A stretch of 44,852 nucleotides of DNA, taken from a phage. The notes beneath the pieces are model-generated. The model did not search any database. It was not told the origin of the DNA and saw nothing but the letters and a program-made list of their open reading frames with translations. Positions 3,284-39,212 of the stretch are shown here, piece by piece. How positions within the stretch are numbered: position 1 is the first letter of the stretch; each line of letters begins with the position of its first letter. The stretch is from the sequence record PZ239914.1; one strand, written 5' to 3'. A program made the translations under genes and the position numbers.

Positions 3284-4900
3284 CTACTCCCCGGACTCAG
3301 GCATCTCAACTCGCATATCAATCCATCGCCCCGCCGGTATATCTACGGGGTCCATATCCGCCACGCCTTCCACGATGTTTCTTGCAAATTCCGGAACTCC
3401 TGTGTGTTCCCGGTGGAACGTTTTAACAATTATGTCCCCGGTATCCAGAACCTTAAAGTCCACCCACAACAACGGCAACCCGTTGTTGTTACTCGGAATT
3501 GTAAAACCACCATCAACCCCTCCCCAGGCCGGATCCGAGTTAAACCCTAACACTCCGGATACCTTATACACGCCCGTATCGATCCGCTCGCTCTTCACAC
3601 CTTCTGCCTCCTTGTTAAGCTCCGCGGTTCCGTCGCCACGCAACTTAACGATAGGAGACGCGGGCTTAAGGTTGCCGTTAGTGTCAATGGTGGTGTTGGC
3701 GACTGAGTAGAATTTTCCCGCAGGGCCGACAAGGGTGCCGTTGTTGTACATTACCCATATCCTTCCATATGTCGCATGGTCGACAGCCCCGAATACGAAC
3801 CCGGATGTATCGGGGTTTAAATCCGGACTTGCGAGCGCCCCCCATGAAAAATCAATGGTCCAGTTTGTTGTGGAGGCGCTAACCTGGCTATGTTTCGCCA
3901 CGGAGTCCGGGGCCAATGACACTACCGACTTATACCCGAAATCCGCCACGCCCACGTTAGTTCCGGCGGATAATCGTGTAGTGTATTTATTTTGGGTGCT
4001 CCCAACCTCGACTAGGTCGCCGGCCCCGACTCCAACGTTACGCGTTGCCGCTGAGCCAAGCCCCATATTCGTACGGGCTGCGGCCTTGTTGGCAACGTCT
4101 GCCAGGTTCTGCGACGTCTTCATGAATTGCGCAGGGTTGATCGAGTTTTTGAATCCTTCGGCTTCGTCGCGGTATCCCAACGCGGCATCACGGGCGGTTT
4201 GCGCGTCTGTCTTCGCCGCGTTGGATTCGTCGCGAATAACGCCGGTATCCGTCTTAATCTGGTTGGTCTGGTCCTTGATGGCCTGCGTATCAGATTTAAG
4301 CTGATCGGTTTGCGTCTTGATTGTATTGGTGGCGTCGTGGATCGCCTGCGTATCAGCCTTAATCTGGTTGGTGGCGTCGCGAATACCAGCCGTCTCGGTC
4401 TTGAAGCCTTCTGCCTCATTGCGAAATCCTTGCGCAGCTGCTTCCGATGCGGCGGCTTGCTGTTGCAGGTTGCGCATCTCAACAGGGTCGATCTGCTTCA
4501 TTAGCTGCGACAGATAGCCCCATGACATGCCCTGCATAACCAGCCCGTTAGGTAACGTCACTGTGACTTCTTCAGCGTCGCCGAAGATTGCACGCCAGTT
4601 GTTTTCATCCGCGATCATCAAGCGTAATGCCTTCTGTGCCTGGACGGTTACGCCCATCGTTGCCAGCGACATGGTATCGCGCTTAACGCCATCCCACGCG
4701 AGGCCGGTTGCCGTTGGGCCGTCGAACGGCAGAACCAGAGTAAGCGACGTGTCGCTTTCAATGGACGCGATTGCCACGGTGTAGGGGACTTGTCCTACAA
4801 CCAGCGTTAAGAAGTCGCCAGCGTTAAACGCGGTAAACGTCGTGCCAACCCCTACAACCGCCTTGCTGTTGTTCGTTACGGATAGAGTACCCGCTGCCAT
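3284..4900 (-). CDS. side tail fiber protein with coiled-coil repeat region
   Basis: 538 aa from the ATG at 4900 (GAGGA RBS); repeated D-x-T-N-x-I-K-x-D-T-Q-A-I units; Gly/Thr-rich C-terminal region; adjacent to the J homologue. Confidence 0.7.
   Translation of the reverse strand: MAAGTLSVTNNSKAVVGVGTTFTAFNAGDFLTLVVGQVPYTVAIASIESDTSLTLVLPFDGPTATGLAWDGVKRDTMSLATMGVTVQAQKALRLMIADENNWRAIFGDAEEVTVTLPNGLVMQGMSWGYLSQLMKQIDPVEMRNLQQQAAASEAAAQGFRNEAEGFKTETAGIRDATNQIKADTQAIHDATNTIKTQTDQLKSDTQAIKDQTNQIKTDTGVIRDESNAAKTDAQTARDAALGYRDEAEGFKNSINPAQFMKTSQNLADVANKAAARTNMGLGSAATRNVGVGAGDLVEVGSTQNKYTTRLSAGTNVGVADFGYKSVVSLAPDSVAKHSQVSASTTNWTIDFSWGALASPDLNPDTSGFVFGAVDHATYGRIWVMYNNGTLVGPAGKFYSVANTTIDTNGNLKPASPIVKLRGDGTAELNKEAEGVKSERIDTGVYKVSGVLGFNSDPAWGGVDGGFTIPSNNNGLPLLWVDFKVLDTGDIIVKTFHREHTGVPEFARNIVEGVADMDPVDIPAGRWIDMRVEMPESGE
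4150..4400 (-). repeat. in-frame degenerate tandem repeats inside the tail fiber gene
   Basis: Repeated ctgcgtatcag...ttaa..ctg.t.ggt DNA units encoding IRDATNQIKADTQAIHDATNTIKTQTDQLKSDTQAIKDQTNQIKTDTGVI; approximate boundaries. Confidence 0.5.
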
Positions 4901-4921
4901 AGCTAAATCCTCATAAATTGG

Positions 4922-4950
4922 TTGCATTCTTGATCGAGCGGTGTAATACT
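4922..4950 (+). promoter_or_regulatory. candidate sigma70-type promoter (TTGCAT-17-extended -10 TGtAATACT) for the lipoprotein gene
   Basis: ATTGGTTGCA at 4917-4926 overlaps the -35; an 80-bp divergent region separates the tail fiber start (4900) from the lipoprotein start (4981). Confidence 0.4.
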
Positions 4951-4980
4951 GAAACTCGACCAAATATAGGAGATGATACC

Positions 4981-5202
4981 ATGAAAACTTTAATTATGAT
5001 TTGTGCGGTTCTGTTGGCTGGTTGTGCTGTAGAACGCAACAACGGCGATTGCATTACGGTTGCCTACGGTAGCTGCATGTTGCGCTACGTCGACGGGAAG
5101 AAAGTGCCAGCCGGAGATGTGGATATGCGCTTCACTGGTCTGTCTGCCGATAGTGACGGCAACTTCTCGGGTACGGTATCAGTTAAATCGCGGGAGTGGT
5201 AA
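4981..5202 (+). CDS. small lipoprotein (73 aa), candidate superinfection-exclusion factor
   Basis: MKTLIMICAVLLAGC signal peptide with lipobox L-A-G-C; GGAGA RBS; own promoter; opposite strand to the flanking tail genes. Confidence 0.6.
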   Translation: MKTLIMICAVLLAGCAVERNNGDCITVAYGSCMLRYVDGKKVPAGDVDMRFTGLSADSDGNFSGTVSVKSREW

Positions 5203-5204
5203 TA

Positions 5205-6170
5205 ATGGGCGCTGGAGTACTTATCGACTACAACGACGGGCGACCGGTTATGGAGATAACCGCCGGGCTACGCGCGCCGTCATTCTGTACATCATTCTAT
5301 CAGCGCTGCCAGTCTGATAAGACGCTAACTATTAACACTCCGCTAACGCCGGGGTCGGATCTGGTCGTCGTGCTCACAAGTCCCGTTGAAGTGATGGAAG
5401 TCTTCGACCAGACACTGGTCTTGCCAGATCCGTTTTACATAACGTCAATACAGCGTAACGGGGATAGCGGAATAACCTTGCGCGGTGAGGACGCGTTTAA
5501 CGCATATAGCGGGCTTCCATCATGGGGCGGGGTGATTATGGAAGTGCTGCCGGTGGGGTCGCGCAATGCGGGCTTACTGGTGGCGAACTCGACTGACTTT
5601 ACCGCGATATCGAACGTATCCCGGCTTATGACCTGCCGATATGCGCAGCGCGTGTGGGTGAACGGAAGTATGCCATTACCGGTAAGCGGTGTCCCGTTCG
5701 CGCGCTGGGACGACGGAAACGTGTCTGTCGGCTTCGATGGCGGAAGTATTATCGTCCGTAATGCATCCTATGGCGGGATTGACGACGTAGGCGCGGCTGT
5801 TGAAATGGACTTGGTTATATTCAACAATACGCCGCCCACCCCTGGAAACGGCATCACCATGACAAACAACCAGGGGCAGGTCACGTTCTCTACCGTGAAT
5901 AAGCCGTTTGTTATCAATTCCGTTATTAATATCAGCACTGGTGGTAAGAATATCGGTAACAGCCTCGTACAGCTTTCATATACCGGCGCGCTTATTGAGA
6001 ACAACAGCGGATACAACCACGTGAGAATGAATGGGATACGCATGGCAGGCAACGTGGTTAGCGCGGCACGAAATCGCGTGATTGGTAACTACTCACGGCA
6101 GCAATTCCAGATGCCTAACCGCAACATAACCGTACCCACACCGTTACTCGTCATCCCTAACATGTATTAA
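5205..6170 (+). CDS. hypothetical protein (321 aa) co-transcribed with the lipoprotein
   Basis: ATG 3 nt after the lipoprotein stop; Gly/Asn/Thr-rich; no recognised motif. Confidence 0.5.
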   Translation: MGAGVLIDYNDGRPVMEITAGLRAPSFCTSFYQRCQSDKTLTINTPLTPGSDLVVVLTSPVEVMEVFDQTLVLPDPFYITSIQRNGDSGITLRGEDAFNAYSGLPSWGGVIMEVLPVGSRNAGLLVANSTDFTAISNVSRLMTCRYAQRVWVNGSMPLPVSGVPFARWDDGNVSVGFDGGSIIVRNASYGGIDDVGAAVEMDLVIFNNTPPTPGNGITMTNNQGQVTFSTVNKPFVINSVINISTGGKNIGNSLVQLSYTGALIENNSGYNHVRMNGIRMAGNVVSAARNRVIGNYSRQQFQMPNRNITVPTPLLVIPNMY

Positions 6171-6191
6171 AAAAGGGGCCATATGGCCCCT
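6168..6191 (-). terminator. intrinsic terminator after the J gene
   Basis: On the minus strand GGGGCC-atat-GGCCCC hairpin followed by U6. Confidence 0.6.
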
Positions 6192-6197
6192 TCGCAT

Positions 6198-9100
6198 TTA
6201 CCACGTCCCGACTTTCACCCTGCCCCCGCCAGGTAATGGCACGTTAACGCCCGTTGAGTCGATCGTAACGGACCCGCCGGAGAATCCGAAGTTACCCGTG
6301 GTCGCGAACAGGTTGCCGCGTACCGTTACGTTGTTGAACTCCGCCCCGCCATCCTTCGCGATACGCCAGCCGCTGCTACCCGGATTCCAGTTATTCGATT
6401 GCAGCGTGTCCGTGATCTGTGCGAAGTTGATTGACGCGTTCTTGATACGTGCCGTGTCGATGTACACCTGCCCGCCGTCGACGATAAACGCGGACGAAAG
6501 CGACCCATTCGACGGGTGCATGATGTAGAACTGGTCCGCCTTGAACGCGATGCGTGATTTAACCGCGCCACCTTCCGCCACGACCGAAAGCTGCATACCG
6601 GCATCGTAGTAAGTCCCGTTATACGTCACGCCAGCTTTAAGGCTATATGTAGCGCTACCGCCAACATGGTTAAACGAGGACGTCATCTTCTGCTCGATAG
6701 CTGCGGACTGCTGCCCGAACTGCGCCGCGACCTGGGTCTTATACTCCGCCAGTGCGCCCGCTACGTCTGCCGTTGCCGTTTGTACCTGCTGGATGGCAGC
6801 TTCCTGTTCCCCGAACTTAGCGGCAACAGTTTGTTGGTACTGGGCGAACGCTTGTTCGTGCGTGCTTTGCGCGGTCTGCAACATGTGGATTGACGCTTCC
6901 GCATCGTCAAGGCGCGTGCCGATCAACGTCTCAAGTTGCGCGACCGCCTTGTGGGCGTCCGTAGCCACGTTATACGCCACCGTGATTTCCGCATAAATCC
7001 CTTTATACTCGTCGCGGGCATTGAATAGCTGCTGGGCGTCGGTGAGCATAGACTCATAGATACCTTGCGGGATCGTGTCGATTGCTTCCTGGAAGTGTTT
7101 ACCATCCTCGGAAGTCAAGAACTCGTCGTCCAACCCCTTCATGTACTCGTCAACTTTGTCACTCACCTGGCCTTCAAACGGGGCGGACCAGTCCGACAGG
7201 TTGCCGATTTTATCTGCTACACGGGCGCGCAACTGCTGGTAGATCCCGAACTCCAGCGACGTTTGCGCATAGTCAGACCCCGGATATGGGACGTTGGTCA
7301 AGAACTTCCATTCCATTTCGCCCCGCTTGCGAACTTCAAGCTCGGTGTAAGAGATATCCGTCGCGGCGTTGTTGTGGTTCCACTTCCACAAAATTTGGTG
7401 GAGGCCCGAAATCGCGTTGGTGATGATAGGCGCGTTAAGCCCTCCGAGACGACCTTCCACCGGCGTGATGGCAGACGACACCCACGGGGATGAAATCTCG
7501 CCCATACCGATCGCGCGGACGCGGGCCTGGTAGTTACCAGAAAACACATTTGGGATGTGAGCGCCGTTCGAAGCCGTGCGGGGGATGTTTACCCAGTCGT
7601 TTCCCCACTGGATCGCCATATTCTGCAAGCTGGTACGTCGCCACTGGATTTCATAGACAACGGCATCCTTCACCGGCGGGAATACAATATCCACGTTGGT
7701 GATTAGCTGGCCTTGCGATGAAATCTGCGACGGGGTGATGGTCACGGACTCCGGCCCCTTCATTACTCCGTCAGGCACTTGCGTAAAGATGCCTGGGTCA
7801 AGGCGAGCGCCATTATCGACGGCATCATATTTGCTATCGTTGTACTCGATCCCGCGCACTGAAAAAGTGCTGGTAGAGTCGTCATATTCCAGGTCGGTGA
7901 TGCGGAACTTCTGCAACTGGATATCGTCACCATCAACGCAAAACGGCTGATCAGGAATCGGGTCTGCGTCCAGTGCGGTTTTTAGCGTAACCTTGTTGCC
8001 GTTGACGCTGGCGATCTCGCGAGTCTCCACATTACCGCTATCGGTGCGTACCAGGAATTTATCACCGGGGCGGAACGTGATTTCGCTGTCTGTGTTCAGC
8101 ACAGTCCGCGTGCCTGGATCTGACAACAGGCGACCGCCGCGGGTCTCGAAGCCGCCAGAAATGTTTGTATCGGCGATCGCGACTACGCTACCAGGAATAA
8201 AGAATAGTCCTTCCATGCCAACCTTAAAGCTAACTTGCTGGTCAAGCTGGTTGGAGATTAGCGCCCAGTGCCCGCGGCGTTGCGCTTCCGATTCACGAGT
8301 ACAGCCGATCGCCGTAATATCAAGGCGGTTGATTTTATGGCGGCGCACCAGTTCGACACGCTGGCCCGTTGCGATGGCGTCTTCGTAGTGGTTTTTCGGA
8401 TTGCCGTATGCTACCGCGAATGTGGAATAGCGAGTTTTCTGGCTGCCAGATGCGTAGTCGAATCGACCATCAATAACCGAGGCGTTGGTGATAGTGTGCG
8501 ATACCGCTGCGACCGGCTGGTCGCTTACGATATTCAACATCTGGTTGCCCCACCAGGTCATACCGGCAAAGATGGCGGCTAAGTCCTTAAGAACGGTCCA
8601 GGCGTCGGTCTGCGACTGGATGTACATATCATTCTTAAAGCGGATTTCTTGCCCGCCGTTGCCGTCACTGACCATTTGGTCGCAGCGCTGCGCAATCTGG
8701 TATAGCGCGTACCGATTCAGCATTTGCGGCTTGATCCTACGACCGAGGCCGAAGCGCTCAGTAATACAAATATCGTACCAGTGCCACGCAGGGTTATCCG
8801 TCCATGCGCGTTTGAACGTGCCATCCCAGTCGCCAGAATAGGTATGATTGATCGGGTCGTAGTTGTTCGGGACCAGCACTTTGCGGCCTTTGCACTTAAT
8901 GGATACGCGCGGGATGTTCTGGAACGCTTTGGCGTCGAACTCCACAAACAACAGCGCGGTTAGCGGGTAACGCAGACGGGCGTCGATAATCTCAGTGATT
9001 GATTGTACCCGGATATCATTAACCACTTTCGCCGATGTAGAATCTGCCGTTGTGCGGTGAACTTCCACGCGCCAGCCGGTGTTCACGTTCGGTGGTAATT

Positions 9101-9644
9101 CGATGCGGTGGTCGCGCTCATACAGTGACATTGTTTTACCAACGGCAGCGAAGTTGAACTCGCGCGGGTCGGCGTTATCGGTGTACACAACGATTTTATA
9201 GTCGATGCGTCCGCCCACCAGGTCTCCATTATCTTCGTTGGTGTACAAAGCTGGAATGCCGATTCGAATGCGCACGGCGTCAAGACTGGTGTCATTAATC
9301 TGGCGCACCCACGGCGTGCCGTTTTCCAGTTTTACGCCTACGGACTGCTCGCTTTCTACCGCTGAAAATCCGTGGATCACGTCCTGGTGCTGTGTGCCCG
9401 GTCGGAACTCCACACGCGCGCCGGGGAAGTTTTCCGACAAGTCGGCGTTCTGGATCGGCGTGCCGTCCAGGTATACCCGCTGCCGCAATTCGCTGGCGCT
9501 GGTAATACTTTCGAATTCCCCTTCACCCAGTGCAAGCAAGATGCGTATTTTAGCCAGGGAGTGCAGGCTGTCCGGCGTTTCCTGCGGGGTGTGCTGTTTT
9601 CCGCCGCCGCCTTTATGCCCTGTGACGTCGTAGATAATCGTCAT
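6198..9644 (-). CDS. tail tip / host specificity protein (lambda J-like)
   Basis: 1148 aa; Gly-rich N-terminus (HKGGGGKQHTPQE) and the YSGDWDGTFK block (as recalled from lambda J); position after an I-like gene. Confidence 0.9.
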   Translation of the reverse strand: MTIIYDVTGHKGGGGKQHTPQETPDSLHSLAKIRILLALGEGEFESITSASELRQRVYLDGTPIQNADLSENFPGARVEFRPGTQHQDVIHGFSAVESEQSVGVKLENGTPWVRQINDTSLDAVRIRIGIPALYTNEDNGDLVGGRIDYKIVVYTDNADPREFNFAAVGKTMSLYERDHRIELPPNVNTGWRVEVHRTTADSTSAKVVNDIRVQSITEIIDARLRYPLTALLFVEFDAKAFQNIPRVSIKCKGRKVLVPNNYDPINHTYSGDWDGTFKRAWTDNPAWHWYDICITERFGLGRRIKPQMLNRYALYQIAQRCDQMVSDGNGGQEIRFKNDMYIQSQTDAWTVLKDLAAIFAGMTWWGNQMLNIVSDQPVAAVSHTITNASVIDGRFDYASGSQKTRYSTFAVAYGNPKNHYEDAIATGQRVELVRRHKINRLDITAIGCTRESEAQRRGHWALISNQLDQQVSFKVGMEGLFFIPGSVVAIADTNISGGFETRGGRLLSDPGTRTVLNTDSEITFRPGDKFLVRTDSGNVETREIASVNGNKVTLKTALDADPIPDQPFCVDGDDIQLQKFRITDLEYDDSTSTFSVRGIEYNDSKYDAVDNGARLDPGIFTQVPDGVMKGPESVTITPSQISSQGQLITNVDIVFPPVKDAVVYEIQWRRTSLQNMAIQWGNDWVNIPRTASNGAHIPNVFSGNYQARVRAIGMGEISSPWVSSAITPVEGRLGGLNAPIITNAISGLHQILWKWNHNNAATDISYTELEVRKRGEMEWKFLTNVPYPGSDYAQTSLEFGIYQQLRARVADKIGNLSDWSAPFEGQVSDKVDEYMKGLDDEFLTSEDGKHFQEAIDTIPQGIYESMLTDAQQLFNARDEYKGIYAEITVAYNVATDAHKAVAQLETLIGTRLDDAEASIHMLQTAQSTHEQAFAQYQQTVAAKFGEQEAAIQQVQTATADVAGALAEYKTQVAAQFGQQSAAIEQKMTSSFNHVGGSATYSLKAGVTYNGTYYDAGMQLSVVAEGGAVKSRIAFKADQFYIMHPSNGSLSSAFIVDGGQVYIDTARIKNASINFAQITDTLQSNNWNPGSSGWRIAKDGGAEFNNVTVRGNLFATTGNFGFSGGSVTIDSTGVNVPLPGGGRVKVGTW

Positions 9645-15117: not shown

Positions 15118-15291
15118 TTATGCAGTCTCAGACGAGGGGGGCCGTTGACCCCCGTCTAGTCTGAAAGACTGGGCTTTGTCCCGCTTGTCCCGATCGGCTG
15201 AAAACCGCGGCAGCACTGGCGGGGACGTGGTGCTGTCCCGCTTTGTCCCGCTCCTTGTTTGTCCCGCTTTCTGTCCCGCTCAGTTTATGCA
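15118..15291. repeat. iteron-rich noncoding repeat element, copy A
   Basis: About 174 bp, roughly 85% identical to 32339-32512; starts TTATGCAGTCTCAGACGAGGGGGGCC with nested hairpins, then six direct TGTCCCGCT-type units, ends AGTTTATGCA. Confidence 0.8.
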
Positions 15292-15439
15292 CGAAATACG
15301 AATAGGTATGCACATTTGTGGGGTGGGACAAAACGGGACGTCCCGCTTGTCCCGCTTTTAGATTATGCAATGGTAGTGATTAGATATGCGGTTTTGCAGG
15401 GGCGGGACAAAACGGGACGCCCCGATCAGTCCCGCTTCA
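15292..15439. repeat. additional direct and inverted GTCCCGC/GGGAC iterons extending copy A
   Basis: GGGACAAAACGGGAC at 15325-15339 and 15405-15419 (inverted) plus direct GTCCCGC units at 15340, 15349 and 15430. Confidence 0.7.
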
Positions 15440-15763
15440 TTATGCTGGGTTCTGCTGCGCCATCTCATCAAGCGCGATTCGTTCCATTAGCTTGATATCT
15501 TTAAACGCTCGCTGCTCGTTTTCTACACCGTGCATCTTAAATAACCACTCCAGCACGCCGTAGTCGATGCCGTATGCGCCACCAAATCCTGTGCGCCATT
15601 GCGTGGAGCAATCTGTGAAGACTGCGACTACCTTCGCGTTGTCGGGCCATAGCGCAACAGGCGGACAAACATCTTCGGGGGCCGCGCCCCATAAACTTGC
15701 GGCTAAATCTTCGGAGGGTGGCGGCGGGCCATAAAAGCGTCGCGCCGCCTCAATTAGTTTTTT
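15440..15763 (-). CDS. tail assembly chaperone T-like extension, expressed by -1 frameshift as a G-T fusion
   Basis: 105 sense codons open in the -1 frame from the slip site to the TAA at 15440-15442; no ATG-initiated ORF of 60 aa or more; -1 frame closed by TGA just upstream. Confidence 0.65.
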   Translation of the reverse strand, partial: KKLIEAARRFYGPPPPSEDLAASLWGAAPEDVCPPVALWPDNAKVVAVFTDCSTQWRTGFGGAYGIDYGVLEWLFKMHGVENEQRAFKDIKLMERIALDEMAQQNPA

Positions 15764-20998: not shown

Positions 20999-21028
20999 TT
21001 GCATTGCGGATGTTGGTTGCAGTATATT
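20999..21028 (+). promoter_or_regulatory. candidate sigma70-type promoter (TTGCAT-18-TATATT) with two TTGGTTGCA motifs
   Basis: AT-rich upstream tract at 20961-20998; motifs at 21012-21020 and 21026-21034; drives the plus genes at 21064-22182. Confidence 0.45.
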
Positions 21029-21063
21029 GGTTGCACACCAACAGAGATATGAAGGAAAACAAA

Positions 21064-25248: not shown

Positions 25249-26634
25249 TTAGTAGAAGTCTACAGTTGGAACAACGGCGATTGGGCGAATCACTGGGAAC
25301 AGGTGCGCAATTGGATAGCCCGCGGCATCGTTCATGTGGTCCACACCGGCGGTTTTATCCGGCTCGCCTTTCTTCAGGTCGTAAACCTGCTGTTCCAGAC
25401 ATTTCGCTAGTGTAGGGCATTTATCCAGGTTGACAAAATACTGGCGCACACCCTTCGAGTTGCACATCATCGTATTCATCGCGATCAATCGGTCTTTCAC
25501 AGGAGGGTTAACGCTGTCGTACTCCACCTCGAAGCCCGCGTCTTCCAGTTGCGCGATATCGGACGACGACGCGTTGACCGTCTTGCGGGATTTGCCACTG
25601 CTATCCGGGTAAACGACGACCCTACCGGCGGCACAATGTTCCGGGTAGCGCTCTTCGATCGCCTCAATCATAGCCGGGGTGTCAAACAGGTCCACAAATT
25701 CATCCACCGCGTGAATCTCGTCTCGGAACTCCTTGTTCTCGGTTACTCGCTGCCGTCTGACGTACACAACCGCCGCCATCTTCGTGACGTTAAAGTCCAT
25801 ACCGATAATCAGCGTGTCTTCCGGCTGCACTTCTTCGGTGCTGGCGTTCTCCTCACGGTTGAACATCTTGTATACTGCGCCCGACGTAAGGTTAACAAAC
25901 ATGCCGTTAAGGTACGCATCAATCAGGTTAGCCGGGTACTGGCTGCGCAGCGTGTCGATGAAGTCTGCCGGTAGGTGGTGGTTGTCGGTGGTCTTCGCCC
26001 GGATCAAACGTTTTTGGCTATCCTTCTCCACTTCGAAAATTTGGTACATCGCCCGGAAGCCTTCAGGCGTGGACACGATGACGAACTGGCGTACAAAGCC
26101 CGCACGCAGACGACCGAGCAATTTGTGATATGCCGCCATTGCGACGTCTTGTTTCGTGGTATCGAACTCGTCGGCGACAATCCACGCGGCGTTGACCCCG
26201 ATTAGGCGGGTATAGTTCTCCATTGATTCACAGATAACGCGGGTCCATTTGCCTTTCACAAGCACGTTATAGATCTTGTCCTGCTTATTGAACTTCCACC
26301 GGAAGCCCGCCTCGTCAAACGCCTTTTCCAATTCCGGATACATGATTTTAACCAGGAGTGGGATGGTCGGCTCGGTCACGATGCCGTCATGGCCCGGGTT
26401 CAGGGTTAAAAGCTGGATGACCTTACGCGCTGCGACCCACGACTTTCCACCACCGAAGCCGGAACACAGGCCGAGGATTTTAGTCTTTGTGTCGCGCAGT
26501 AGTTCGACCTGGTGCGGTAGGCAATCAGGCTGGTAAAGACGCACCGCCTGCGCAACGCGTGTCGGGCGTGGTGGTCGGTTGCGCTTTGCGATCGCGCGTT
26601 CCAGTGCGCGGTGTTCTGCCGCATAGTTACGCAT
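25249..26634 (-). CDS. terminase large subunit
   Basis: P-loop LGLCSGFGGGKSWVAARK, acidic Walker-B-like ADEFD, C-terminal nuclease-like region. Confidence 0.9.
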   Translation of the reverse strand: MRNYAAEHRALERAIAKRNRPPRPTRVAQAVRLYQPDCLPHQVELLRDTKTKILGLCSGFGGGKSWVAARKVIQLLTLNPGHDGIVTEPTIPLLVKIMYPELEKAFDEAGFRWKFNKQDKIYNVLVKGKWTRVICESMENYTRLIGVNAAWIVADEFDTTKQDVAMAAYHKLLGRLRAGFVRQFVIVSTPEGFRAMYQIFEVEKDSQKRLIRAKTTDNHHLPADFIDTLRSQYPANLIDAYLNGMFVNLTSGAVYKMFNREENASTEEVQPEDTLIIGMDFNVTKMAAVVYVRRQRVTENKEFRDEIHAVDEFVDLFDTPAMIEAIEERYPEHCAAGRVVVYPDSSGKSRKTVNASSSDIAQLEDAGFEVEYDSVNPPVKDRLIAMNTMMCNSKGVRQYFVNLDKCPTLAKCLEQQVYDLKKGEPDKTAGVDHMNDAAGYPIAHLFPVIRPIAVVPTVDFY

Positions 26635-27185
26635 TATTCGCCCTGGCCTTTGCCGGTAGGTTCCACAACGACGTCGCCGTTATCATCTTCGTCGTCATCC
26701 AGCGGCACATCGTCCCGGACGCCGTGGTTGGCTTTAAGCAGGAACGTAGCGAAGCCTGCCGCGATGGTCACGCCGCCAGCTTCCATCAGGAAAGTTTTCT
26801 GCAACTCCATAGCGTCCGCCATCGCCTCGGCGAACTCCTCATGCGCACGCGCCCAGCGATACAGGCAAGCTACGCCCACGCCGATTTCCGCGGCAAATCG
26901 ACCGAAGGTTGGCATTTTGTTGCGGGGGATTACTTGCGCAGCGCCTTTATCGGAGTAGTTTACCTGCCAGGCGTCGGCATCGGCAAAATAGCGGCGAAGC
27001 TGGTCGCAGTAAACGGATCGGTAGTCAGTAGGGCGTCCACATTTGCCGCCTTTACGGCGCTTTCCGTACTCGATTTCAGGTCCGAGATTGGTATGCTCGG
27101 TTTGCTCGCCTGGTTTACGGCGCGGGGTAACTGCCACTCGTCCGTCCAGTTTAGCGCGACGGCCCTTAACTTTGATTTCTGCCAT
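26634..27185 (-). CDS. terminase small subunit (alternative start at 27206)
   Basis: HTH-like PTFGRFAAEIGVGVACLYRWARA; acidic C-terminal tail; stop overlaps the TerL start. Confidence 0.6.
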   Translation of the reverse strand: MAEIKVKGRRAKLDGRVAVTPRRKPGEQTEHTNLGPEIEYGKRRKGGKCGRPTDYRSVYCDQLRRYFADADAWQVNYSDKGAAQVIPRNKMPTFGRFAAEIGVGVACLYRWARAHEEFAEAMADAMELQKTFLMEAGGVTIAAGFATFLLKANHGVRDDVPLDDDEDDNGDVVVEPTGKGQGE

Positions 27186-27248
27186 GATATAAGCCCTTTT
27201 GTGCATATGCGCCGACCATCGGCAACATAAGAGACGGCCCTGCCATCT

Positions 27249-27267: not shown

Positions 27268-27292
27268 CAAAAAAGCCCACCAAATCGGCGGG
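27268..27292 (-). terminator. intrinsic terminator upstream of the packaging genes
   Basis: Minus strand GCCCGCC-gauuu-GGUGGGC followed by U6. Confidence 0.5.
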
Positions 27293-27301
27293 CTAGGAGG
27301 G

Positions 27302-27514
27302 TTAAACGTGGCGACCGTAGTATCGGGTTAACATGCTTTCTACTTCGCTTATAGCGCCTTCTGTGTAGCGTATTTGCGATAGTATCTCGATCCGCTCGCT
27401 GATAGACATGCCTATTGCCGCTGCCGTTCGTTCGAATCGGCGCAAGCCTTCGAGTTGTTTGCGTAATTCCTTCAGGCGGTCCGCCTGCGTGCTCATGAAT
27501 ACTTGTCTAATCAT
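27302..27514 (-). CDS. hypothetical protein (70 aa)
   Basis: ORF-track ORF; stop overlaps the upstream gene. Confidence 0.4.
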   Translation of the reverse strand: MIRQVFMSTQADRLKELRKQLEGLRRFERTAAAIGMSISERIEILSQIRYTEGAISEVESMLTRYYGRHV

Positions 27515-28653
27515 CTCAGCATTTCCGGGCTAATGGTTAAGCGCGCTACTTCGCCGTAGTTGGCGCTATAGGTGATTACGTTGGCACTACGACCTGACAT
27601 CCAACCGCCTCGGCTGGCATATGCGTCTTTTGCGGCGAGCGTCCGGTGTTGTTCAACAATCATGTTGCGGGATTCTACAATCTTCTGGTGGTGCAAGTGG
27701 CCTACATGCGCGTAGCTATACTCGCTGGATCCGAACGCTTGTCTGAATTTTGAAATCATGACGGTTTCAATAGCGTCAAAACGTGCCTTATGCCCGTGGT
27801 GGAAGAATAGCGTGGTCTTGCCGTGTTGCACCATTTTGTATACGTCCGGGGACGTATCCACATCGACACGCGGCTCGTTCTCGTACAGGGTATTGAACAT
27901 TTCAGCCAGCCAAATCATGCCAGACTCGTCATGATTCCCCTGGACTATTAGCAGTTTGACTTTGTGGTGTTTTTGCAGCGCCAGTTCCACCACGTTGCGC
28001 ACCATGCGAATCATGTAGCGGACCAGTTTCTGGTAGCGGGTATCCGCGTCCAGTACGTGCCCGCTGGCAGGAGTGACGGCATCGAGGCTATCAAAGTGCG
28101 CCATATCACCGAGGATATTGATTACGGCAGTGCCTGCGTCTGGTGCGCGTGCGAAGGCTTCGACAAACCAGCGATAGAACAGGTCTTCGGCAATCGCCAT
28201 ATCCCAATCCTCGCCAGTCTCCTCACCCCATGCCAGCATGCCCAGGTGGAAGTCGGACACGGTGTACAGGTTGAGTAGGTCAAGTGCCTGGATCGGGACT
28301 GGTGGGGCGCTTACTGGTGCTGCCGGTTTGATTTCGCTGTTCATACCCTCGACAACGGCGCTCATTGCTTCAAGCTGGCGCTCCTTGTCCTGCTCAGTGA
28401 TAACCCACGACATGACCTCTTCGCCATTTCCGCGCACCAGGGCGGATACGCGTTTAACACCGAAGCCATCGGCAACGCGCTTACGAATTACGGCATCATT
28501 ACCGTGACCAATACCTTTCTTCGACAGGCGGGCTTTGCGCATGTAGACATTTCGAAGAGCAATTCCGTACTTCTTCGCAATATCTTTCGCGGTAGTGCCG
28601 GATTGCAACTCGGCGATCAATTGCTCGTCGGTGATTTTAGTTTGCGGGTGCAT
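27511..28653 (-). CDS. HTH domain fused to calcineurin-like metallophosphoesterase
   Basis: Phosphoesterase motifs in order: DFHLG, GDMAHFD, GNHDE, HHGH, GHLHH; N-terminal HTH-like TAKDIAKKYGIALRNVYMRKARL. Confidence 0.7.
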   Translation of the reverse strand: MHPQTKITDEQLIAELQSGTTAKDIAKKYGIALRNVYMRKARLSKKGIGHGNDAVIRKRVADGFGVKRVSALVRGNGEEVMSWVITEQDKERQLEAMSAVVEGMNSEIKPAAPVSAPPVPIQALDLLNLYTVSDFHLGMLAWGEETGEDWDMAIAEDLFYRWFVEAFARAPDAGTAVINILGDMAHFDSLDAVTPASGHVLDADTRYQKLVRYMIRMVRNVVELALQKHHKVKLLIVQGNHDESGMIWLAEMFNTLYENEPRVDVDTSPDVYKMVQHGKTTLFFHHGHKARFDAIETVMISKFRQAFGSSEYSYAHVGHLHHQKIVESRNMIVEQHRTLAAKDAYASRGGWMSGRSANVITYSANYGEVARLTISPEMLR

Positions 28654-28670
28654 ATTAATTCACTTCCAGA

Positions 28671-28796
28671 TTATGGGACCGAGGACAATATACCACGGTC
28701 CCTATTGCGGCGGGTTATAGCAATTCGCAAATAACCATACCGATAAATGCTGCGGTGGACCAGATTGCCAATACCCAAATATCATTACGTGCCATA
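28671..28796 (-). CDS. possible small membrane protein (41 aa)
   Basis: ATG at 28796 with GAGGAG 9 nt upstream; MARNDIWVLAIWSTAAFIGYGYL hydrophobic helix then a basic tail; below the ORF-track cutoff. Confidence 0.3.
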
Positions 28797-28859
28797 GTGT
28801 AATACTCCTCTCGTTGATTGGTCGCAGTATGGCGTCTATGTTGGTTGCAAGTCAAGCAA

Positions 28860-28896
28860 TAAAAAGCCCGGAATTAACCGGGCTTGTTGTTTTATT
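28860..28896. terminator. bidirectional terminator after the Ig-like gene
   Basis: AAGCCCGG-aattaa-CCGGGCTT flanked by A5 and a T-rich run. Confidence 0.55.
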
Positions 28897-29314
28897 CTTC
28901 GGCTCCCGTTACGGTGAAGATGGCGGAAGCCAGCACCCCGCTACCGTCGGAGGCCACCCAAAAAATGTGGGCGCTTCCCGCCTGTGCTGCTGTGATTTCG
29001 CCGGTAGTCTGGTCGATTGTCGCACAGTTCGGGTTCGACGACACCCACTTCCCTGCCTTGTTAGTTGCGTCGGATGGCTGTACCTCAACCGAAGCGGTGG
29101 CCTTCGCACCAACTGCGGCGGATTCCGGTGTGATTGTTACGGTGGCACTTGTCACCGGCTTACTTTCCGGCGCGGGCGGCGGGCTGGGCAACTTCGCGTC
29201 GAATACCCCCGCATGGCTTATCGTACCCGCTACAATAGCGCGTGCGCCTGGGTCTTCGGTTTTAGCCAGCGCGGCGAGCGCGTCCGCATTATGATCAAGA
29301 ATACTTTTCAACAT
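28892..29314 (-). CDS. bacterial Ig-like (Big_2-type) domain protein
   Basis: 140 aa from the ATG at 29314 (GAGGGGG RBS); Ig-like pattern GATIDQTTGEITAAQAGSAHIFWVASDGSGVLASAIFTVT. Confidence 0.55.
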   Translation of the reverse strand: MLKSILDHNADALAALAKTEDPGARAIVAGTISHAGVFDAKLPSPPPAPESKPVTSATVTITPESAAVGAKATASVEVQPSDATNKAGKWVSSNPNCATIDQTTGEITAAQAGSAHIFWVASDGSGVLASAIFTVTGAEE

Positions 29315-29330
29315 ATCGTGCCCCCTCGTA

Positions 29331-29822
29331 TTACGCCGCGTTACGCCCGATTCGCTCGGCAACGTCCCACTGCTTACCATCAAATAACGCCTGTCTGCCG
29401 ATTGCACGGCGCACCAGACCCTTAAGCACTTCCCCTCCTTGCTTGCGGAACAGCGGCAGCGTAGCCCGTACCTTCGCCCAGTCACCCAGGCGGATCGCAT
29501 CGTCAAAATCACCCGCGACGTCGTCCGGCATGATCGGACCTGGACCAGCATTGATAACCAGGTCCACCAGCGCGTCGAATTGCGCCTGATTGATGCTCGG
29601 GTGTGCGTACTTGTTCACCCAGTTTTCGGCATACGCCACATCGCGCTTGAGTAGCTCCAGCGCTTCCGCGCGGGTAATGCTTCGAGGCGGATTAGTTCCA
29701 GTATGACCATAGCCCCAGGTATACAGGCCGCGGGCCTGCTCTTTCTTGGTCGCGAAATACGGCACTGGGCTGAAAGCCTCCCATGCTGCCGTAAATCTTA
29801 GACCGTTGTCACTGAATCGCAT
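29331..29822 (-). CDS. endolysin (phage lysozyme, GH24, P22 gp19-like)
   Basis: N-terminal FSDNGLRFTAAWEAF...GLYTWGYGHTG matches the E...GxxTxGxGHTG lysozyme signature. Confidence 0.8.
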   Translation of the reverse strand: MRFSDNGLRFTAAWEAFSPVPYFATKKEQARGLYTWGYGHTGTNPPRSITRAEALELLKRDVAYAENWVNKYAHPSINQAQFDALVDLVINAGPGPIMPDDVAGDFDDAIRLGDWAKVRATLPLFRKQGGEVLKGLVRRAIGRQALFDGKQWDVAERIGRNAA

Positions 29823-31524: not shown

Positions 31525-31790
31525 TTTGCCAGTCTCCAGTGTTTGCCTACCCGCTCAATGGCGGGCTTTCGGCGTAATGTAATACGGATCCCCATTGGTT
31601 GCAAGGAAGTCCGCACCCTGAAATCGTGTTGTGCTGCGAACTGGTGCAAGTAGCGAGTCTGCGTCAACGGCTTCACGTCATCGCGATAGCACCAGAACAC
31701 TGATTCGCCCGCATTCGCATTCCTAGCCCATATTCGTATGCAATGCAGTGGAATATGCCACGAAAGCTGTTTCGCTCGTCTACGGCCCAT
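31521..31790 (-). CDS. hypothetical basic protein (89 aa)
   Basis: AAGGGG RBS; contains a TTGGTTGCA copy at 31594-31603. Confidence 0.35.
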   Translation of the reverse strand: MGRRRAKQLSWHIPLHCIRIWARNANAGESVFWCYRDDVKPLTQTRYLHQFAAQHDFRVRTSLQPMGIRITLRRKPAIERVGKHWRLAK

Positions 31791-32126: not shown

Positions 32127-32154
32127 TGTTCAGTCCTCCGGTTGGTGTGCAACC

Positions 32155-32183
32155 AAAATATCAGGGTGCCAGGCTGAATGCAA
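32155..32183 (-). promoter_or_regulatory. candidate sigma70-type promoter (TTGCAT-17-TATTTT) with two TTGGTTGCA motifs
   Basis: Minus-strand motifs at 32148-32156 and 32179-32188. Confidence 0.4.
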
Positions 32184-32338
32184 CCAATATTAATCACGCG
32201 CATGAAAAAGTTGATCGCTATCTGCTGCAACTGCAAACTGCATTTTCTGCCCACCATTCAGCAACTCGCATTGGTTGCCTAGTTCATCCGCGACCGCACT
32301 TCGCATCATGCTGCCGTGTATTTTGCAATCCCCGGATT

Positions 32339-32512
32339 TTATGCAGTCTCAGACGAGGGGGGCCATTGACCCCCGTCTAGTCTGAAAGACTGGTAGTTGT
32401 CCCGCTTGTCCCGCTCCCCTCCAGGCCGCGTCCTCCGGGGCGGGACGGGGGTGCTGTCCCGTTTTGTCCCGCCTCTTGTTTGTCCCGCTTTTTGTCCCGC
32501 TTAGTTTATGCA
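32339..32512. repeat. iteron-rich noncoding repeat element, copy B
   Basis: Same 5' hairpin module and six TGTCCCGCT-type iterons as copy A, with a divergent central spacer; between the primase end and the 31800-32126 gene. Confidence 0.8.
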
Positions 32513-32586
32513 ATAAAACTGCATAACTATTCACTATATTCACACTACACGGCAACCAATACGACCAGATAAAAACACTCAAAATG

Positions 32587-32669
32587 GCAACCAATGCGCG
32601 CAAAATTTAATCTTTTAGCGATATGGGAATTCCCATATCGGCAACCAATACGCGCAAAATTTAATCTTT
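32587..32669. repeat. 30-bp direct repeats flanking a 20-bp perfect palindrome at the primase 3' end
   Basis: GGCAACCAAT(G/A)CGCGCAAAATTTAATCTTT at 32587-32616 and 32640-32669; palindrome GATATGGGAATTCCCATATC at 32620-32639; second repeat contains the primase stop codon. Confidence 0.7.
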
Positions 32670-35441: not shown

Positions 35442-35471
35442 TTGACACCCATCCTGCAACCAATCTATCAT
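35442..35471 (+). promoter_or_regulatory. candidate strong rightward promoter (TTGACA-18-TATCAT) with upstream T/A tract
   Basis: Perfect -35 TTGACA at 35442-35447, -10 TATCAT at 35466-35471, T9A4 tract at 35422-35434; TGCAACCAAT motif in the spacer. Confidence 0.5.
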
Positions 35472-35667
35472 TCACTCCGTCGACAGGATGCAGGACGCAA
35501 ACTGGAGAGGGGCAACGCAGGGGCCGGATCGAAGTGTCAGGATTCCCAACCGTGATTATATAACCCGGTCCACTACCCGAACGGGAGAACGCGCAACCGG
35601 GCAATATGTTAAGGCCACCGACGAAGTTAACTGCCGACACCTAAACTTAACCAATCGGAGATATACC

Positions 35668-36183
35668 ATGTTTGAGCAAATCGTAAACCTGATCACTCGC
35701 GGCGTAGTAGCACTGGAAACCATCGCTAAACATTATGAAACCGTTGGCGCTGCCGTTGGTAAGCAGGAAGACAAGAAGCCGTCTAAGGCCAAAAAAGAAG
35801 TTGTCGAAGATGACGACAATGACGCCGAAGACGAAAAACCGGCTAAATCTAAAAAAGCCCCGGCGAAAGGCAAGGCCAAAAAAGAAGTCGTAGAAGATGA
35901 CGACGATGATGCCGAAGACGAAAAACCGGCTAAATCTAAAAAAGCCCCGGCGAAAGGCAAAGGTAAGAAAGATGCCGATCCGCTGGCGGAGATGCGCGAC
36001 GAAATCAAACAATATGCCGCTATTATTGCCGGTGGCGATGACGACGACGCGAACGACGAATTCGACGACCTGCTGGAATCGTTCGAGATCAAATCAATCG
36101 CCAAGCTGGAAGATGACGACGTCGAAGACTTCCACACAGAGTTGAAAGAGATCGTCGAAACCTATTTCGAACTGGAAGATTAA
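35668..36183 (+). CDS. highly acidic tandem-repeat protein (171 aa), candidate DNA mimic
   Basis: ATG with GGAGA RBS; two 29-aa repeats KKEVVEDDD(N/D)DAEDEKPAKSKKAPAKGK; Asp/Glu-rich C-terminus; first gene after the strong promoter. Confidence 0.6.
   Translation: MFEQIVNLITRGVVALETIAKHYETVGAAVGKQEDKKPSKAKKEVVEDDDNDAEDEKPAKSKKAPAKGKAKKEVVEDDDDDAEDEKPAKSKKAPAKGKGKKDADPLAEMRDEIKQYAAIIAGGDDDDANDEFDDLLESFEIKSIAKLEDDDVEDFHTELKEIVETYFELED
35791..35964 (+). repeat. 2 x 87-bp in-frame tandem direct repeat
   Basis: 35791-35877 and 35878-35964 are near-identical. Confidence 0.8.
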
Positions 36184-38426: not shown

Positions 38427-39212
38427 ATGGCTAAAGTCAACCTGAAAAATGTGCGCGTATGCTTCCTGAAAATCTGGGAACGTGATACCCCTAAACAGGA
38501 TGGGCAAAAACCGGCATACCGTGCCGTGATTCTTCTTGATAAAGAAGATCCGCAGGTGGACAAAGTGGAAGCGGCAGCGCGCGCAGTGCTTACCGATAAG
38601 CTGAAATCCGAGAAGAATGCCGATAAGTGGATGGACCGCCACTACGCCCAGGATTCGAAGGAATGCGCAGTCCGCGACGGCGACGAGCGCGACGAAGTGA
38701 CCGAAGAATTCGAAGGCATGTTGTATATCAACGCCAAATCGTTCAAACAGCCTATCATTCAAACGTCACTCGGCGAGAAGCAGACTGAACAAGGTCTGAC
38801 CGTAGAAGGTGACGAGATCGAAGGCCAGGAGATCTACTCAGGTTGTTATTGCAACGTGTCCCTTGATATTTGGGCGTGGAACAACACCAACGGCAAGGGA
38901 CTCGGTGCTGGCTTGCTGGGTTTACGCTTCCGTGATGACGGTGAAGCCTTCGGCGGTGGCGGGTCTTCTTGCTCCGATGAAGACCTGGACAACGACGACG
39001 AAGACGAAGCACCGCGCAAGGCTAAGAAGTCAAAACGTCGTGATGACGATGATGAAGATGACAAGCCGCGCAAGTCCGAGAAATCCAAGCGCCGCGATGA
39101 CGACGACGATGAGGAAGATGAAAAACCTCGCAAACGCCGCAAGTCCCGCGATGACGAAGATGAGGACGAAGACGACGAAGACGAAGCACCACGTAAACGT
39201 CGCCGCCGTTAA
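38427..39212 (+). CDS. phage ssDNA-binding protein-like (DUF2815-like) with alternating acidic/basic C-terminal repeats
   Basis: Start at the ATG with GAGGA RBS; family call from recalled N-terminal similarity and position next to the nuclease; C-terminal DDDEDEAPRKAKKSKRR-type repeats. Confidence 0.55.
   Translation: MAKVNLKNVRVCFLKIWERDTPKQDGQKPAYRAVILLDKEDPQVDKVEAAARAVLTDKLKSEKNADKWMDRHYAQDSKECAVRDGDERDEVTEEFEGMLYINAKSFKQPIIQTSLGEKQTEQGLTVEGDEIEGQEIYSGCYCNVSLDIWAWNNTNGKGLGAGLLGLRFRDDGEAFGGGGSSCSDEDLDNDDEDEAPRKAKKSKRRDDDDEDDKPRKSEKSKRRDDDDDEEDEKPRKRRKSRDDEDEDEDDEDEAPRKRRRR

Follow-up and report, generated by a model that had tools for sequence, protein, structure and literature searches.

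A helix-turn-helix metallophosphoesterase of a Dhillonvirus-like Escherichia coli phage, a probable DNA-directed phosphodiesterase of the T1 ORF16 family

The phage DNA of sequence record PZ239914.1, whose full length of 44,852 nucleotides (nt) is referred to here as the window, encodes a protein of 380 amino acids (aa) in which an N-terminal helix-turn-helix (HTH) is fused to a C-terminal metallophosphoesterase (MPE) domain. In the calcineurin-like superfamily, this protein resembles the nuclease branch (Mre11, SbcD and the PolD small subunit DP1) without being an Mre11/SbcD member, and it is probably a DNA-directed phosphodiesterase; that it acts on host DNA or on DNA ends is given somewhat less than an even chance. 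A fusion of this size and composition had been proposed in an earlier, sequence-only reading of the window, and both the open reading frame (ORF) and all of the motifs listed there are present. Judged by its sequence, which is not novel, the window MPE is an ordinary member of a large phage family that is already catalogued (PHROG 704 / VOG9929, T1 ORF16).

The source of the window is a Dhillonvirus-like E. coli siphophage, in which the MPE region has 94% nucleotide identity to phage vB_EcoS_PTXU06 and 89-94% to the remaining nearest Dhillonvirus records, and annotated Dhillonvirus proteins are 97-99% identical to the window MPE. The hidden Markov model of PHROG 704 ("DNA repair exonuclease") is matched over the full length of the protein (E 8e-161, residues 5-379 aligned to profile positions 2-389 of 390), and comparison of codons gives 98 synonymous and 5 nonsynonymous differences from phage Bas83 and 96 synonymous and 12 nonsynonymous differences from phage mckay. 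Because the family match is full-length, synonymous changes are in excess and the motifs are conserved, the ORF is a real gene, and it is under strong purifying selection. The names under which PHROG 704 / VOG9929 is found in databases, "DNA repair exonuclease" and "calcineurin-like phosphoesterase", are best read as labels assigned by homology. A search of NCBIfam with the MPE gave no match and no curated model for the family, and the PADLOC defence-system models, whose coverage does not extend to phage anti-defence proteins, were likewise unmatched.

The catalytic domain, the N-terminal module and the genetics of relatives

All five motifs of the calcineurin-like superfamily (DxH, GD, GNH[D/E], H and GHxH) occur in the window MPE, where they are represented by D134-x-H136, G182-D183-MAHF-D188, G239-N240-H241-D242, H285/H286/H288 and H319/H321/H322. 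In an alignment of 48 family representatives with 32-47% identity, D134, H136, G182, D183, D188, T194, N240, H241, H286, G318 and H321 are invariant, while H186, H285, H288 and H319 are conserved in at least 90% of the sequences, and an alignment of the domain alone also keeps the metal ligands D134/H136, D183, N240/H241, H286 and H319/H321. With every ligand invariant or at least 90% conserved among the 48 sequences, the loss of metal ligands on alignment, which had been named at the outset as the result that would speak against such an enzyme, does not occur. The window MPE falls short of the Pfam gathering cutoffs for PF00149 and PF12850 (20.1 vs 21.5 and 22.0 vs 27 bits, respectively), PF00149 is matched at E<0.01 by just 14 of the 48 relatives, and the membership of this divergent family in the superfamily rests on its motifs and fold.

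An AlphaFold2 model built from the 48-sequence alignment (mean predicted local distance difference test score 91.4, predicted template modelling score 0.79) has the alpha/beta sandwich of the calcineurin-like superfamily from about residue 126 to the C-terminus, preceded by three helices (residues 9-17, 22-29 and 33-45), a linker of lower confidence, a hairpin (64-73/79-88) and a further helix (90-105). In the structural ranking of known relatives, the 3'-5' exonuclease DP1 of PolD scores highest (15.7), followed by Thermotoga maritima Mre11 (15.1), Staphylococcus aureus SbcD (14.8), LpxH (13.8), MJ0936 (13.6), Rv0805 (12.2), PP5 (9.2-9.3) and calcineurin (8.9), and Foldseek agrees in placing Mre11 and DP1 at the top (E about 1e-8, 10-18% identity). 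The choice among Mre11/SbcD-like, PP2B-like and cyclic-nucleotide phosphodiesterase folds, which the sequence-only reading had left to structure prediction, therefore comes out with Mre11, SbcD and DP1 nearest and the PP5/calcineurin type lower. When all PDB sequences were searched with a catalytic-domain profile, T. maritima Mre11/SbcD (E 0.06-0.25) and then a Pseudomonas putida nuclease MPE (E 0.9) were the only metallophosphoesterases retrieved, along with two unrelated proteins (E 0.5 and 2.3); the Mre11 alignment passes through motif I (SDWHLG..W vs TDxHxGMLAW) and motif II (GDLLH vs GDFLH). A search of solved structures with the whole protein sequence returned chance matches only, and no Mre11 or SbcD family is among the Pfam matches of the window MPE or its 48 relatives. 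The signatures of the PPP phosphatases (GDxHG, GDxVDRG and GNHE) are not present as such, and no close PPP fold match was found for the MPE.

Compared with Mre11/SbcD, the window MPE ends at residue 380 after the MPE core and lacks the C-terminal capping and Rad50/SbcC-binding region, whereas the N-terminal HTH and hairpin are additional; a Rad50/SbcC/SMC-type partner was not found among the neighbour families listed for the window and about 100 surveyed loci. DP1, a proofreading exonuclease, has 14% identity to the window MPE, which has no DP2 partner. Similarity to the P. putida nuclease MPE (PDB 6nvo) is weak, and that protein, of about 200 aa, is without a DNA-binding extension. Lambda NinI and the PPP phosphatases belong to the same superfamily, and in relatives of temperate type the MPE gene is placed much as NinI is in lambda, where the early region ends.

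The predicted three-helix fold at the N-terminus matches known DNA-binding domains of the LuxR/GerE, sigma-70 region 4 and resolvase types, which bears out the HTH-like segment suspected from the letters alone. The window MPE itself is sub-threshold against curated HTH models (HTH_7 E 0.056, HTH_28 0.092, GerE 0.12), its 48 relatives match Sigma70_r4_2 (9 members, best 1.5e-9), GerE (2.4e-8), HTH_1, HTH_28, HTH_8 and HTH_23, and GerE is retrieved from the PDB with the family profile at E 0.018. Between the HTH and the catalytic domain lies a family-specific hairpin and long helix, in which G77 and W83 of the hairpin are invariant in the N-terminal alignment and for which structure comparison gave no fold match. 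This hairpin-helix is kept in homologs without the HTH, for example those of Campylobacter and Vibrio phages. Similarly, four prophage homologs (loci L096, L099, L100 and L103) have, instead of the HTH, about 30 N-terminal residues with the pattern CPxC...RNG...C..C and keep the "QWVK" element of the hairpin together with the MPE domain; the Cys-rich segment, with sub-threshold Pfam support (Zn_ribbon_InsA E 0.008), is probably a zinc ribbon. The exchange of the head module while the hairpin and catalytic domain stay fixed suggests that nucleic-acid targeting is a selected property of the family. Among the functions offered for the fusion beforehand, a DNA-targeted nuclease is thus the best supported, by the HTH fold and the Mre11/SbcD/DP1-like domain, and nothing specific points to a regulator or a cyclic-nucleotide phosphodiesterase.

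Published genetics are available for a homolog. Escape mutants of the Drexlerviridae phage Bas1 selected against the DRT7/UG10 defence carry missense or frameshift changes in Bas01_0050, called "a putative nucleic acid-targeting phosphoesterase", while lambda escapes DRT7 through gam (10.64898/2026.02.16.706125). In the same preprint, Bas01_0050 was toxic in E. coli and for that reason could not be co-expressed with DRT7, and the authors propose a functional rather than a direct link (10.64898/2026.02.16.706125). In the Bas01 record, bas01_0050 is a 376-aa ORF at the position of T1 ORF16, and the window MPE is 44% identical to its product over 374 residues, HTH included (E 3e-106). T1 ORF16 / Bas01_0050 has the same length and architecture (HTH, hairpin-helix and MPE) as the window protein and differs only in genomic position. 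The escape mutations and the toxicity together indicate that the family is dispensable for plaque formation, harmful to the host if expressed alone, and tied to DNA metabolism. In T1 and TLS infections, the host genome is broken down enzymatically and its nucleotides are used again, and the early gene product responsible has not been identified (PMC11447400). In addition, the MPE Gp48 of mycobacteriophage A10ZJ24 has phosphodiesterase activity, is toxic, disrupts host genomic DNA and is not required when the host is permissive (PMC12287305); its motif I Asp lies at residue 10, hence it has no N-terminal HTH-hairpin module, and the likeness to the window MPE is at the superfamily level. Nothing further was found in the literature on the genetics of host-DNA degradation by T1 or on other defence systems tied to an MPE gene.

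Distribution and genomic position of the family

The MPE was detected by tblastn in 2,062 phage records, which include Dhillonvirus, Kagunavirus, Jerseyvirus, Drexlerviridae and phages of Klebsiella, Vibrio and Campylobacter, and an exhaustive search, clustered at 50% identity, gave 4,672 representatives. In the Drexlerviridae the family is near-core (508/522 genomes), and in members without the SH3 gene, polynucleotide kinase and deoxynucleoside monophosphate (dNMP) kinase are the commonest genes directly downstream of the exonuclease (PMC13164509). T1 carries the MPE as ORF16 (ST16) with its own terminator after it, and also encodes Pnk. Prophage MPEs occur in large chromosomes or scaffolds of Stutzerimonas, Dyella, Sphingomonas, Brucella, Bordetella, Pseudomonas and others.

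The position of the gene varies between lineages. The sequence-only reading placed it next to the packaging genes, which is correct for the window, where a 70-aa ORF, a terminator and the genes for the terminase small subunit (TerS) and large subunit (TerL) follow in that order, but does not hold elsewhere: T1-like phages have the MPE before the lysis cassette, and in the Guernseyvirinae (Jerseyvirus and Kagunavirus) it lies in an oppositely oriented cassette within the tail module (L008/L009, Kagunavirus KY295898, 12428-14824; L004, SETP7, 3747-5346). The Guernseyvirinae cassette is headed by an Imm_superinfect superinfection-immunity membrane peptide (E 2e-13 and 4.8e-15). In Kagunavirus, a PNKP-type HAD phosphatase (PF25109, E 6.7e-20) coupled to the MPE comes next and a P-loop protein after it, a pair that resembles a split polynucleotide kinase/phosphatase. 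In a Campylobacter phage, the MPE adjoins a DNA ligase and a Holliday-junction resolvase, and in a Vibrio phage of the Ackermannviridae it adjoins a primase. Since the positions differ in all of these groups, packaging adjacency was rejected as a defining property of the family.

Neighbouring genes were surveyed in 42 non-redundant viral loci and 66 non-redundant prophage loci. The downstream neighbours that start a late region are lysozyme (4 viral, 4 prophage), antiterminator Q (4 viral, 3 prophage) and terminase large subunits, with holin as a downstream neighbour in viral loci only, and the neighbours of nin-like or nucleotide-metabolism type include HAD_PNKP (4), dATP/dGTP diphosphohydrolase, dUTPase, NinG and deoxyribosyltransferase-like domains of unknown function. 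In several loci the gene is beside or between terminase genes: it has a Nu1-type TerS on one side and a gpA-type TerL on the other, with a 4-nt overlap (L077, 255-4006), is found in the order TerS, MPE, 187-aa ORF and gpA TerL (L068, 1496-5800), or directly before a Terminase_3 TerL (L088). A fourth locus (L094, about 5423-9110), in which ORFs of 176 and 662 aa overlap the MPE on either side and one gpA match was obtained, looks like a further TerS-MPE-TerL sandwich, the terminase assignments being confirmed for L077 and L068 only. Given the 4-nt overlaps in these environmental and prophage sandwich loci, the MPE would be co-translated there with the packaging enzymes. Adjacency to terminase genes is therefore a recurring and not a defining arrangement, and most of it can be attributed to the position of the MPE at the junction of early and late genes.

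Host-DNA breakdown, packaging and other explanations

In the preferred reading, an N-terminal HTH of the LuxR/resolvase/sigma-region-4 type would tether the protein to DNA, the C-terminal binuclear-metal (probably Mn2+) phosphodiesterase, of Mre11/SbcD/DP1-like form, would cut that DNA, and the hairpin-helix would join the two. The protein would act in lytic growth as an accessory, non-essential DNA nuclease that attacks cellular DNA or exposed DNA ends; attack on host DNA would lead to breakdown of the host chromosome and salvage of its nucleotides, the nuclease activity would cause the toxicity seen on expression alone, and it is to this activity that the DRT7 defence would respond in the case of T1-like phages. 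The reading is consistent with the invariance of the metal ligands across the 32-47%-identical relatives, and with neighbours that are repeatedly a PNKP phosphatase, a polynucleotide kinase, a dNMP kinase, a dUTPase or a dATP/dGTP diphosphohydrolase. It also draws on the degradation of host DNA by Gp48, an unrelated phage MPE (PMC12287305), on the near-core standing in the Drexlerviridae of a family that includes T1 ORF16, taken with the host-genome degradation by T1 and TLS, and on the toxicity of Bas01_0050 and its frameshifts in DRT7 escapers, beside the parallel case of lambda gam.

Several points weigh against this reading. We infer the DNA substrate, the nuclease chemistry and the host-DNA target; the similarity in sequence to Mre11/SbcD is not significant in the PDB profile search, and the structural ranking, which is based on a predicted model, does not discriminate sharply among the relatives. 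The family is common in prophages of bacterial chromosomes, where wholesale destruction of host DNA would be atypical, and bulk degradation has no obvious need for an HTH of the sequence-specific type. Furthermore, the phage already encodes a RecB-like exonuclease and a small endonuclease, host-DNA degradation would have to be carried over by analogy from T1/TLS to the Dhillonviruses, and a gene for early shutoff of the host would not typically be placed next to late genes. The most inclusive version of the proposal, in which the T1 ORF16 family would at once be the long-sought T1-type host-chromosome nuclease that allows nucleotide reuse, the trigger of DRT7, a Rad50-independent combination of an HTH or zinc-ribbon head with an Mre11-like blade, and, within the terminase operons of some lineages, a third packaging-associated nuclease, is doubtful as a whole.

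The position of the gene in the window, directly upstream of TerS and TerL, would instead suit a DNA-maturation nuclease linked to packaging, which trims, debranches or otherwise prepares concatemers for terminase, or assists cutting in the manner of the HNH endonucleases beside HK97-type terminases. Mre11/SbcD enzymes process DNA ends, hairpins and branches, the terminase-adjacent loci (L077, L068 and L088, and apparently L094) involve three terminase types, and endonuclease VII neighbours the MPE in 2 loci. However, such a role is unlikely: the Drexlerviridae, T1 included, have the gene before the lysis cassette, Jerseyvirus and Kagunavirus have it in the inverted tail-module cassette, Campylobacter and Vibrio phages have it among replication genes, a place at the early/late junction with antiterminator Q, lysis and nin-like neighbours explains much of the terminase proximity, and Bas1 frameshift mutants form plaques. 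The Kagunavirus arrangement, with its MPE translationally coupled to the PNKP-type phosphatase and followed by the P-loop protein, suggests another role, that of a nucleic-acid end-healing enzyme working with PNKP to clear 3'-phosphates, 2',3'-cyclic phosphates or blocked termini after damage by host nucleases, in repair or counter-defence. Some MPE-domain enzymes are end-healing, such as the phosphoesterase domain of bacterial Pnkp; HAD_PNKP is downstream of the MPE in 4 of 40 viral loci, T1 encodes Pnk, and the Drexlerviridae without SH3 have polynucleotide kinase and dNMP kinase downstream (PMC13164509). This role is nevertheless improbable, as most MPE genomes, the window included, have no adjacent PNKP, the HTH indicates duplex DNA rather than tRNA, and toxicity on expression alone is unexpected for a pure repair phosphatase.

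The escape from DRT7 through gam in lambda and through the MPE family in Bas1 would also fit a DNA-end factor that interferes with RecBCD or host end processing, with a Gam-like outcome reached by an enzymatic route. T1-like phages inject linear DNA, and to our knowledge no RecBCD inhibitor has been identified for them; yet the parallel is purely circumstantial, the DRT7 authors themselves suggesting a functional and not a direct link, and the invariant catalytic residues point to an enzyme and not to a mimic, which leaves this explanation a slim chance. Slimmer still is the chance of a protein phosphatase, or a transcription regulator with enzymatic output, that would be the functional analogue of lambda NinI in a nin-like region. 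An HTH is present, the promoter of the gene bears a phage-specific operator-like motif, TGCAACCAA, and loci of temperate type have the MPE at the end of the early region, the place occupied by NinI in lambda, upstream of antiterminator Q (4 viral, 3 prophage) and near NinG, but the PPP signatures are missing in their proper form, and a Kagunavirus genome that encodes an MPE of about 75% identity has no copy of TGCAACCAA. Least probable of all is a phosphodiesterase that would destroy the cyclic (oligo)nucleotides serving as defence messengers, with an anti-CBASS, anti-Pycsar or anti-Thoeris effect, because a DNA-targeting module of HTH or zinc-ribbon type would be needless for an enzyme acting on small molecules, the nearest structures are nucleases, and the homolog Bas01_0050 is toxic to uninfected E. 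coli K-12; the PADLOC defence models gave the window MPE no match either, though phage anti-defence proteins are not covered there.

The transcription unit, other elements of the window and significance

The MPE gene appears to lie in a small transcription unit of its own between the lysis genes and the terminase genes (Table 1). The promoter and terminators are predictions from consensus scans, backed by conservation in relatives; the promoter hexamers are conserved in Bas83 and mckay and the distal part of the spacer varies. The first cistron encodes a hydrophobic peptide whose frame and sequence are kept in Bas83 and mckay, where it is unannotated, with synonymous and nonsynonymous counts too small to decide. 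Counting this peptide and the Imm_superinfect peptide of the Guernseyvirinae, small membrane peptides of two unrelated kinds are encoded upstream of MPE genes. The sequence-only reading had reported a 41-aa membrane-peptide ORF just upstream, which has to be given up: the only two ORFs of 41 aa (27408-27533 and 28595-28720) run antisense to real genes, on the plus strand, the ATG of one is lost in mckay and the other gains a stop codon in Bas83, and the upstream ORF on the same strand as the MPE is the 26-aa one. The 26-aa ORF, which measures 46 aa if counted from the TTG of the -35 hexamer, was probably what had been glimpsed. The last cistron, the 70-aa ORF, has synonymous/nonsynonymous counts of 9/2, 11/6 and 13/5. 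As a universal partner of the MPE it was rejected, because the 76-aa ORF of SETP7 at the same position has no similarity to it, T1 has a terminator there and Kagunavirus a PNKP phosphatase. The two terminase genes beyond it are identified by matches to Pfam GP3_package, Terminase_6N and Terminase_6C and to PHROG 3064, 10250 and 2.

Table 1. Features of the MPE transcription unit, its flanking genes and the TGCAACCAA sites in the window
Feature	Coordinates	Strand	Basis
HTH-MPE gene, ATG start, 380 aa	27511..28653	minus	ORF, PHROG 704 match, codon differences, AlphaFold model
Three-helix HTH, residues about 8-46	28516..28632	minus	Predicted fold
Family-specific beta-hairpin and long helix, residues about 60-107	28333..28476	minus	AlphaFold2 model, N-terminal alignment
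Binuclear metallophosphoesterase catalytic domain, residues 126-380	27514..28278	minus	Motifs, predicted alpha/beta sandwich
Predicted intrinsic terminator before the unit, at the end of the lysis/Ig-domain genes	28864..28885	minus	Scan; stem conserved, loop varies in relatives
Sigma-70-like promoter, TTGACT, 18 nt, CATACT; spacer carries the TGCAACCAA operator-like motif	28826..28855	minus	Promoter scan
26-aa hydrophobic-peptide ORF MARNDIWVLAIWSTAAFIGMVICELL, first cistron	28715..28795	minus	Shine-Dalgarno GAGGAG, 9 nt, ATG
70-aa helical ORF, ATG overlapping the MPE stop (ATGA)	27302..27514	minus	PHROG 20931, E 3.6e-47, function unknown
Predicted intrinsic terminator closing the unit, before TerS	27274..27294	minus	9-bp stem, 6 GC pairs, then TTTTTT
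Terminase small subunit TerS	26634-27206	minus	Pfam/PHROG matches
Terminase large subunit TerL	25249-26634	minus	Pfam/PHROG matches
TGCAACCAA(T) sites	95-120, 2009-2030, 4918-4926, 21013-21035, 28841-28849, 31595-31603, 32148-32187, 32551-32648, 35455-35463		

The motif in the spacer of the MPE promoter recurs through the window. The sequence TGCAACCAA(T) has 12 exact copies against about 0.3 expected, and 27 copies with one mismatch against 11.4+-3.8 in shuffled sequences. Nearly all copies apparently fall in the gaps that separate the longer ORFs, pairs and palindromes are frequent among them (TGCAACCAATAGGTTGGTTGCA; TTGGT-N5-ACCAA), and some overlap sigma-70-like promoters, that of the MPE included. 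The motif is present in other Dhillonviruses and has no copies in the Kagunavirus genome, which led to its rejection as a family-wide target of the MPE HTH. From its sequence pattern the set looks like the operators of a phage regulator, and it may still be a candidate Dhillonvirus-specific site of the MPE HTH.

Beside the unit, directly after the endolysin gene, the segment 28892-29314 (minus strand, inside the ORF listed at 28892-29551) encodes a protein of about 140 aa whose N-terminus corresponds to PHROG 11068 and whose C-terminus is a Big_2 Ig-like domain (E 1.3e-11). It is called "major tail protein" in some relatives, the mckay version has 55 aa and no Ig domain, and the segment is a variable part of the region. 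Elsewhere in the window, the intergenic regions 15118-15450 and 32339-32534 have in common a 196-nt repeat of 82% identity, which carries TGTCCCGC / GCGGGACA units in arrays (12 and 7 copies) as well as a shared stem-loop rich in GC, CAGTCTCAGACGAGGGGGGCC.TTGACCCCCGTCTAGTCTG; these iteron-like arrays may be origins or regulator-binding arrays. In addition, a tandem 87-nt repeat of 95% identity (35785-35958) lies inside the ORF at 35488-36183 (PHROG 3127, function unknown) and encodes a Lys/Asp/Glu-rich repeat, and similar acidic repeats are found at the C-terminus of the gene for a Gp2.5-like single-stranded DNA-binding protein (38976-39196).

Beyond what had been read from the window before, the family proves to be catalogued already as PHROG 704 and T1 ORF16, and one of its members, Bas01_0050, has published genetics. 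Several large groups of virulent coliphages, Klebsiella phages and Salmonella phages, many of them candidates for therapy, have the gene in their near-core set. One homolog, besides its toxicity to E. coli, determines whether a phage is sensitive to a reverse-transcriptase defence. If the HTH-tethered MPE is indeed the host-DNA nuclease of T1, an old question would be closed, the trigger of the defence would be explained and thousands of annotations would be corrected.

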